Shown here in pieces: positions 1,487 to 1,608 of a stretch of DNA of 15,368 nucleotides. The translations under genes and the position numbers were made by a program. The notes below the pieces were generated by a model. That model saw nothing but the letters and a program-made list of their open reading frames with translations, was not told where the DNA came from and did no database searches. This DNA comes from Candidatus Jordarchaeia archaeon (GTDB lineage Archaea > Asgardarchaeota > Jordiarchaeia > Jordiarchaeales > Freyrarchaeaceae), in contig JAHAWR010000017.1 in NCBI GenBank assembly GCA_018383835.1, positions 1 through 15,368 of the forward strand, given 5' to 3'. Numbering within the stretch: the first letter of the stretch is position 1; the number at the start of each line of letters is the position of its first letter.

Positions 1487-1608
1487 AGTCAAGCCCACAT
1501 GCGATTCGGCGAGTACTACTGTGCGGGAGCCAGTGGGAAAGCCGAATGTTGGTGCTACGGCGCCGACCATAGCATGTGGGGTCTACCCGTTCCCATTCCG
1601 AACACGGA
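1487..1608 (+). rRNA. rrf: 5S rRNA, circularly permuted gene (3' half encoded before 5' half); the coordinates are the 122-nt unit predicted to be excised and circularised
   Basis: Rotated, the sequence reads GCGCCGACCATAGCATGTGGGGTCTACCCGTTCCCATTCCGAACACGGA|AGTCAAGCCCACATGCGATTCGGCGAGTACTACTGTGCGGGAGCCAGTGGGAAAGCCGAATGTTGGTGC(TACG). Canonical 5S elements are all present. Helix II is 1573-1580/1494-1501 (perfect 8 bp). Helix III/loop C carries CCGAACACGGAAGTCAAGCC. Helix V is 1504-1510/1541-1547. Loop E shows GAGTA/GAAA. Helix IV is 1516-1521/1531-1536. Helix I is 1548-1555/1560-1567. Confidence 0.85.

Follow-up and report, generated by a model that had tools for sequence, protein, structure and literature searches.

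Where are the ends of a 5S ribosomal RNA (rRNA) if its helix I, whose open end ordinarily carries the free 5' and 3' termini, is closed by a loop of four nucleotides (nt)? The question is raised by a locus of a Candidatus Jordarchaeia archaeon (contig JAHAWR010000017.1 of assembly GCA_018383835.1, positions 1 to 15,368; this whole stretch of 15,368 nt is called the window). Positions 1487-1608 of its forward strand hold a 122-nt 5S rRNA gene in permuted order, and within the gene a hairpin at 1548-1567 joins the two strands of helix I. An earlier note on this DNA, made from the sequence alone, had proposed that the mature RNA may remain covalently circular. The explanation which, on balance, accounts best for all the data is that the hairpin is the capped helix I of a permuted 5S gene processed through a motif of the bulge-helix-bulge (BHB) type, and that the circle is most likely the mature form.

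The capped helix I

No 5S rRNA reaches the Rfam RF00001 gathering score (38 bits) anywhere in the window. A permissive Rfam scan of 1400-1700 gave two RF00001 half matches in swapped order (21.4 and 19.1 bits): the 5' half of the model corresponds to 1559-1608, its 3' half to approximately 1484-1557, and jointly they cover model positions 1-120. The gene is therefore circularly permuted. It begins with the 3' half at 1487-1555 (3' side of helix III, helices II and V, helix IV with loop E), passes through the helix I hairpin with its cap and ends with the 5' half at 1560-1608 (loop A, helices II and III, loop C). In the Rfam alignment, window positions 1559-1567 correspond to model positions 1-9 and 1548-1557 to 111-120; the helix I strands 1560-1567 and 1548-1555 thus fall on positions 2-9 and 111-118, respectively. 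Since both flanks align in this way, the cap sits exactly at the termini of an ordinary 5S rRNA, and the two strands that would end there freely are joined by UACG.

The hairpin itself was found as the earlier note had described it. Read directly, the bases run from G1548 to C1555 (GUUGGUGC, the strand that ends an ordinary 5S), through U1556, A, C and G1559, to the strand that begins an ordinary 5S (G1560 to C1567, GCGCCGAC). They form an 8-bp stem with two G-U pairs (U1550-G1565 and U1553-G1562), and the UACG tetraloop at 1556-1559 is of the UNCG type and is closed by C1555-G1560. The isolated hairpin folds with -12.7 kcal/mol, and in the minimum free energy fold of 1465-1625 (-84.8 kcal/mol, z = -6.9 versus shuffles) the same hairpin forms an arm of a three-way junction. 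Hairpins with an 8-bp stem and a 4-nt loop are not rare in the window (4 and 5 per strand versus 5.2 expected), and this chance frequency would suit a fortuitous inverted repeat or an element resembling an intrinsic terminator. The C(UNCG)G-capped stem is, however, the sole one of its kind in the window, where 0.025 are expected per strand. It is placed exactly between the two 5S halves, it covaries in 36 sequences and no T-run follows it as in a terminator. With the half-match placement, the covariation and the rarity of the cap taken together, we consider both of these explanations refuted, their probability being practically nil. The real significance of the hairpin follows from its context and from the comparison of homologues.

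The comparison is based on 36 distinct sequences (37 in all) with the permuted layout. In an alignment made with MAFFT (A1), helix I and the leader-trailer helix were set wrongly and RNAalifold did not call them; base-anchored counts and a realignment with a covariance model were used. In the covariance-model alignment the whole structure is 91.1% paired versus 61.6% in shuffles (0/500), with a score of 0.777 versus 0.222, and pairing does not exceed 45% when the strands are slid. Helix I is 99.0% paired and seven of its eight pairs have changed on both sides; by the base-anchored count its six base-proximal pairs are 100% standard, compared with at most 83% in shuffled and at most 40% in slid sequences. 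Helix V is 96.7% paired with all 7 pairs covarying, and helix IV is 95.4% paired with covariation in 4 of 6. The motifs CCGAAC, GUACU and GGGAA are invariant in the homologues.

All the structural elements of a 5S rRNA are present, i.e. helices I-V arranged around a three-way junction and the signatures of loops A, C and E. The 3' strand of helix II (1494-1501, CCCACAUG) pairs with its 5' strand (1573-1580, CAUGUGGG) through seven pairs, which are 95.2% paired among the homologues and all changed on both sides. The segment 1504-1547 comprises helix V (1504-1510/1541-1547), which encloses the loop E region and helix IV (1516-1521/1531-1536), and the 5' side of helix III with loop C lies at 1586-1608 (CCCGUUCCCAUUCCGAACACGGA), as indicated by a high-posterior alignment to positions ~28-49 of the Rfam 5S model and by the parse of the BHB motif. 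RNAalifold recovered helices II, IV and V with compensatory changes, a circular fold of the 122-nt product gave the 5S three-way junction, and a covariance model of the permuted gene (R1) scored 150.1 bits on the window gene. The identification of the hairpin as helix I of a permuted 5S is thus supported by the swapped half matches and by the position of the cap, and we have hardly any doubt that the gene is permuted and that its capped helix I is functional.

The bulge-helix-bulge motif and the predicted ligation

The sequences flanking the gene can pair with each other. The leader strand of the outer helix at 1466-1480 (UGCUGGGCGCCAUGA) forms 15 contiguous pairs with the trailer strand at 1610-1624 (UCAUGGCGUCCAGCA), which is assigned from the BHB parse and covariation. 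Next to it, CGUG at 1481-1484 forms all four pairs of a central helix with CACG (C1603-G1606), and this helix is bounded by the 3-nt bulges AAA (1485-1487) and GAU (1607-1609). Archaeal BHB motifs are cut after the second bulge nucleotide. The cuts are accordingly predicted at A1486/A1487, from the position relative to the central helix, and at A1608/U1609, from the BHB parse. The predicted released fragment A1487...A1608 has 122 nt, and the ligated product is unaffected if both cuts move by one nucleotide. A 4-bp helix between two 3-nt bulges on opposite strands is the geometry of the substrate of the archaeal splicing endonuclease (PMC7714728), and the window motif conforms to this definition. 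Of the flanking helices, the outer one is strong and covarying and the inner one, next to the bulges, consists of 2 weak pairs in the window.

The same motif, in which an outer helix accompanies a 4-bp helix flanked by two 3-nt bulges, was found at the homologous place in 37 of 37 sequences, although the parse of two of them (L042 and L050, with short or mismatched outer helices) was set by homology. Among the 36 distinct sequences the central helix has 91.7% standard pairs, and the five outer pairs nearest to the BHB are 98.3% standard, each of them with compensatory changes; in the covariance-model alignment A4, all 12 pairs of the leader-trailer helix have changed on both sides. The segment C1603-G1606 has a dual character, being both helix III/loop C sequence and the trailer strand of the central helix. 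In all homologues the central helix is formed by a short helix III sequence duplicated at both ends of the gene (CCGGAA...CCGGAA; in the window CGUGAA at 1481-1486 and CACGGA at 1603-1608), and a conserved 5S sequence therefore doubles as a processing signal. Such a short direct repeat at the gene ends fits an origin by tandem duplication.

We propose that leader and trailer pair into the BHB, with a central helix built in part from the 5S's own helix III sequence, that the tRNA-splicing endonuclease (EndA) would cut in the two 3-nt bulges, at A1486/A1487 and at A1608/U1609, and that an RtcB-type ligase would join A1608 to A1487 to give a covalently closed 5S of 122 nt. The junction CACGGA-AGUCAAG is the 5S consensus of helix III/loop C; the predicted ligated sequence reads ...CCGAACACGGA|AGUCAAGCC..., and ligation would restore the universal CACGGAAGUCAAG segment without a scar. 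The tetraloop would then stand permanently in the place of the free termini, as part of the structure and not as a spacer, and the circle would enter the 50S subunit as the mature form. In this scheme, transcription and leader-trailer pairing rest on sequence features, whereas cleavage and ligation rest on the established behaviour of BHB substrates; in archaea, the RtcB-type ligase makes circles of excised BHB 'introns'.

If the RNA were cut or trimmed at the BHB and not ligated, the product would be a linear permuted 5S, closed at helix I and with its ends in helix III/loop C. A linear 5S with a closed helix I is known from brown-algal mitochondria (PMC4267664), and the nicked molecule is predicted to fold into essentially the same secondary structure as the circle. 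The junctions speak against this outcome. Three registers occur among the homologues (GA|N with A-GUC, AA|N with G-UUAAG and AG|A with U-UAAG), all of which give CGGAAG[U/C/A][U/C]AA and mature sizes of 120-131 nt. The cut ends thus always rebuild the near-universal CGGAAGU exactly, which would be pointless without ligation, and the convergence of three registers on one junction seems hard to explain unless the ends are joined. Moreover, the nick would fall in the most conserved, protein-binding part of the 5S, and the archaeal ligase routinely circularizes BHB-excised RNAs (PMC7714728, PMC4731332). We therefore judge the unligated form to be quite improbable and circularization itself highly probable. 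A five-frame profile of the ligated junction was also compared with 5.8 billion predicted proteins to look for open reading frames (ORFs) that span it; none scored among the best 8000 candidates, a result which is uninformative.

The fate of the predicted circle

In 37 of 37 sequences, helix I is closed by 3-6 nt or by a covarying extension of the helix, with a contiguous stem of 6-11 bp. Tetraloops are the commonest caps: UACG and UUCG occur five times each (one UUCG on a Njord-type extension), CUCG five times, UUUG three times, CACG twice, and UCCG and CUUG once each. UNCG caps account for 11 and CNCG caps for 7 of the 37 sequences, the remainder being other short caps. The Heimdall/Hod group has 3-nt loops and one 5-nt loop, and one Hel-type sequence has a 6-nt loop. 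The Njord-type helix I is extended by a bulge and 4-6 pairs capped by GUUA, GUAA or UUCG, and the Heimdall-type L068 has an 11-bp helix closed by UCU. UNCG loops were found in at least seven lineages and on differing stems, so they arose repeatedly. A minimal, usually very stable cap is conserved, UACG itself is not. The absence of a spacer between the helix I strands was borne out by the 36 distinct Asgard sequences, all with loops of 3-6 nt or structured extensions; an unstructured spacer was not found in any of the 37 sequences, although the scan by which homologues were collected tolerated 20 extra nt at this place.

The caps bear directly on the possibility that the circle is only an intermediate and that a structure-specific endonuclease opens its cap, leaving an ordinary linear 5S that ends at helix I. 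The location of the cap, exactly at the site of the normal termini, would suit such a step. However, neither a spacer nor a conserved loop sequence for an enzyme to recognize exists in any of the lineages, and the minimal loops enriched for unusually stable tetraloops, together with the covarying extensions of the Njord type, resemble the result of selection on a retained structure. Nor is there an evident benefit of a permuted gene maintained throughout a superphylum merely to restore an ordinary linear molecule. Reopening is thus unlikely in our opinion, although it is the most probable of the alternatives considered here. We favour, with moderate confidence, the closed circle as the final ribosomal form because the cap is kept to a minimum, is often hyper-stable and under structural constraint, and has no conserved sequence that would mark a cleavage site, because the helix extensions covary, because a signal recognition particle (SRP) RNA (PMC4731332) and 23S rRNAs (PMC12918454, PMC7758197) work as circles, and because Escherichia coli tolerates a helix I closed by a tetraloop (PMC7283268).

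Among the closest known systems is the SRP RNA of Thermoproteus, which the earlier note had aptly invoked; there, the splicing endonuclease turns a permuted transcript into a circle that is functional (Plagens et al. 2015, PMC4731332). As in the Asgard 5S, the 3' part of the gene comes first, a BHB is formed by the flanks, the ends of the transcript fall within an internal region of functional importance and the junction restores the canonical sequence; in Thermoproteus tenax the RNA regains its functional sequence by ligation and works as a circle (PMC4731332). The two cases differ in that the former concerns the 7S SRP RNA of some Thermoproteus species only, whereas the 5S layout spans a superphylum, and in that the T. 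tenax circle was demonstrated by RNA-seq and northern blots (PMC4731332), whereas that of the Asgard 5S is predicted. In archaeal 23S rRNA, helix 1 becomes closed when a BHB is cut and the ends are ligated, and ribosomes retain the joined RNA (Pyrococcus furiosus, PMC7758197; diverse archaea, PMC12918454). There, the gene order is normal and the junction lies at the end of helix 1 with extra nucleotides. The 5S gene, by contrast, is itself permuted, a tetraloop closes its helix I genetically and the predicted ligation would leave a scarless junction in the interior. Archaeal rRNA circularization has been described as concerning 16S and 23S rRNA 'but not 5S' (PMC12918454, 2026).

Permuted tRNA genes of Cyanidioschyzon merolae resemble the Asgard 5S gene in that the 3' half comes first and a BHB of the flanks leads to a circular RNA. 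According to the account of this work given in PMC4267664, however, an intervening sequence joins the mature tRNA ends and RNase P and tRNase Z reopen the circle (Soma et al. 2007). The contrast drawn earlier with these genes is apt, as neither the window gene nor its homologues contain a removable spacer. In the brown-algal mitochondrial permuted 5S (Rfam mtPerm-5S; Valach et al. 2014, PMC4267664), a closed hairpin replaces the open helix I just as in the Asgard 5S, but its product is an organellar linear RNA with termini at the alpha/gamma junction, and neither a BHB nor ligation nor a rearranged order of halves is involved (PMC4267664). The window gene differs from this type by its swapped halves and by ends that fall, inside a BHB, in helix III/loop C. 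A scan of 1400-1700 at E <= 10 listed no mtPerm-5S match of its own, which is not an independent test since overlaps within the clan are reduced to the best match.

In engineered circularly permuted 5S (cp5S) of E. coli, the native ends are joined by a tetraloop, new ends lie in loop C or D and the ribosomes are active (Huang et al. 2020, PMC7283268); unlike the Asgard RNA, this construct is artificial, grafted into 23S rRNA and neither free nor circular (PMC7283268). Covalently closed 5S-derived RNAs of low abundance have been detected in Sulfolobus, Pyrococcus and Halobacterium (PMC12558985; bioRxiv 10.64898/2026.03.23.713588). In contrast to the Asgard case, these come from genes with normal order and no BHB, have heterogeneous junctions and were read as minor intermediates or decay products.

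Several observations weigh against a permuted gene whose product stays circular. The inner helix h' of the strict hBHBh' motif is weak, and in 11 of the 36 sequences one position of the central BHB helix is a G.A or A.C mismatch, which leaves three standard pairs. As the loop varies in sequence, UACG as such is not required. Methanococcus maripaludis reopens its circular pre-23S rRNA near helix 1 in a structure-dependent manner (PMC10515664), a precedent which makes a cut in the 5S cap conceivable. Finally, 8-15 kb were examined around each copy, and a divergent 5S gene of normal order may be located elsewhere; in one alternative reading, the permuted copy would be a rearranged, non-functional relic and a normal gene would supply the ribosome. 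A truncated extra copy in one locus (L060) would be consistent with such decay. A relic would not be expected, however, to keep the same layout in different Asgard classes, with every helix showing compensatory changes, with a conserved promoter and terminator and with invariant motifs in loops A, C and E. On the grounds of the covariation and of the conserved promoter and terminator, the reading as a pseudogene was rejected. In addition, neither a ligated-order nor a normal-order junction was found when JGI metagenome contigs were scanned for the Jord/Frey and the Heimdall/Hod types, and JGI-derived contigs do contain the permuted gene. These empty scans are useful evidence against a normal-order copy in two lineages, and are silent on the RNA. 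Altogether, a relic seems very improbable.

As to the advantage of a closed, circular 5S, the rationale of heat protection given in the earlier note is weakened and unlikely to hold generally, as several carriers (Heimdall, Hod and Promethearchaeota) seem to come from non-thermal sediments, judging by isolate names only. Resistance to exonucleases is a possible benefit.

Distribution, gene surroundings and significance

A pattern scan for the order 3' half then 5' half, carried out on one genome per prokaryotic species, matched approximately 36 archaeal genomes. Most are labelled as Jordarchaeia, Freyarchaeota, Heimdallarchaeota, Hodarchaeota, Odinarchaeota, Baldrarchaeota, Njordarchaeota, Helarchaeota, Hermodarchaeota or Promethearchaeota, so that almost all named Asgard classes are represented; seven records bear just the label 'archaeon' or 'uncultured archaeon'. 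The pattern demanded CGGAA after loop C and missed genes of the window type with CGGAU, and the distribution is hence a lower bound. The other matches, 15 bacterial ones, represent a 23S 3' end followed by a normal 5S, or chance. Model R1 separated the two groups, giving 94-162 bits for the permuted genes and 29-39 bits for the bacterial 5S loci. With Rfam 15 at the gathering threshold, no 5S was found in 17 Asgard loci that hold the permuted gene (L007, L026, L031, L037, L042, L043, L049-L052, L054, L056, L061, L064, L065, L068 and L074), and standard annotation would therefore list these genomes without a 5S at the locus.

The window belongs to a Freyarchaeota/Jordarchaeia (Asgard) archaeon. 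The ORF immediately downstream of the 5S gene, at 1732-2610, encodes a protein 100% identical to that of a metagenome-assembled genome of Candidatus Freyarchaeota, with homologues in Jordarchaeales, and the contigs of nine of the loci homologous to this ORF all carry the permuted 5S gene. The two genes are adjacent in the window, in L001-L006 and in L007, and lie within 4-6 kb of each other in Jordarchaeum-type loci. The Frey-type gene order downstream of the 5S (window 1699-8139; L001-L008) comprises a 293-amino-acid (aa) protein without a Pfam match, a small ORF on the reverse strand, a DUF2070 gene and an operon for a four-subunit pyruvate/2-oxoacid:ferredoxin oxidoreductase; the upstream neighbours vary.

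The window gene is preceded by an archaeal-type promoter at 1427-1442, consisting of an A-rich stretch resembling a B recognition element and a TATA box (TTTATATT, 1435-1442), ~25 nt upstream of the leader helix. Its function as a promoter is suggested by agreement with the consensus. An element of the 'aaagcTTTATATT' type is found at an equal distance in L001, L002, L006, L007, L015, L018, L037 and L052. Downstream, a T-rich stretch at 1634-1642 (TTGCTTTTG, with a T-run at 1638-1641) is likely to be an archaeal transcription terminator, and T-runs follow the trailer in most homologues. Having its own TATA box and T-run, the locus thus appears to be a self-contained transcription unit. In genes of the Heimdall/Hod type (L064, L043, L045, L056, L074, L065, L036, L073 and L057), the region 60-90 nt upstream shows a TATA-like ATATTTAAAG at ~75 nt, the leader is conserved (CTCTTGAA.GCGCTCC), and the leader-trailer helix is longer and interrupted (GCGCCAATAA/TCATTAGGCGC). 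An operon linked to 23S rRNA was considered for the Heimdall loci and rejected, as no large-subunit rRNA match was found nearby.

Some further observations concern individual loci and their annotation. The permuted 5S of L067 (JAPDJY010000015.1), which is labelled 'Thermoproteota archaeon', differs by 1 nt from the Freyarchaeota contigs L007 and L008, which makes the label or the binning doubtful. In L060, a second, truncated leader and 3' half (ttgcgccaataacttgcgagactctgctggaagttaagttaggctccg...) lies ~330 nt upstream of the copy at 3552-3705 and diverges after the loop E region; this extra copy is probably a decayed duplicate. The ORFs of 99 and 87 aa that overlie the window gene (1344-1643 on the plus and 1365-1628 on the minus strand) are spurious, and in GCA_038820475.1 (L006 4001-5113) a start set within the 5S gene has lengthened the call of the neighbouring gene from ~293 aa to 370 aa. 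The window also contains a tRNA-Met (CAT) gene (9987-10083, minus strand) whose anticodon and T arms are separated by an insertion of ~20 nt; this non-canonical intron position implies active BHB splicing in the organism.

In the open-access literature, to which the search was confined (subscription journals were outside its scope), 'permuted 5S' refers to organellar genes only, and neither a circular 5S rRNA nor a link of 5S to Asgard archaea, BHB or RtcB was found. The permuted, BHB-processed 5S gene thus apparently represents a conserved arrangement across the Asgard archaea that has not been described. Asgard archaea are the closest known relatives of eukaryotes. A 5S rRNA is usually treated as universally linear and colinearly encoded, and a permuted 5S that would need the tRNA-splicing machinery, in the lineage nearest to eukaryotes, changes the view of archaeal ribosome biogenesis. 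The permutation also supplies a concrete reason why covariance-model annotation misses the 5S in Asgard genomes, which touches on genome-quality criteria that require a 5S. We lean slightly towards the broader view that Asgard ribosomes are built with a covalently closed circular 5S, that the permutation predates the diversification of the superphylum and that the splicing endonuclease and ligase are obligatory for 5S maturation. If this is true, such an early permutation would explain why standard annotation lists no 5S at these loci, and the circular 5S of Asgard archaea would provide a natural test of whether ribosomes tolerate a closed 5S or benefit from it.
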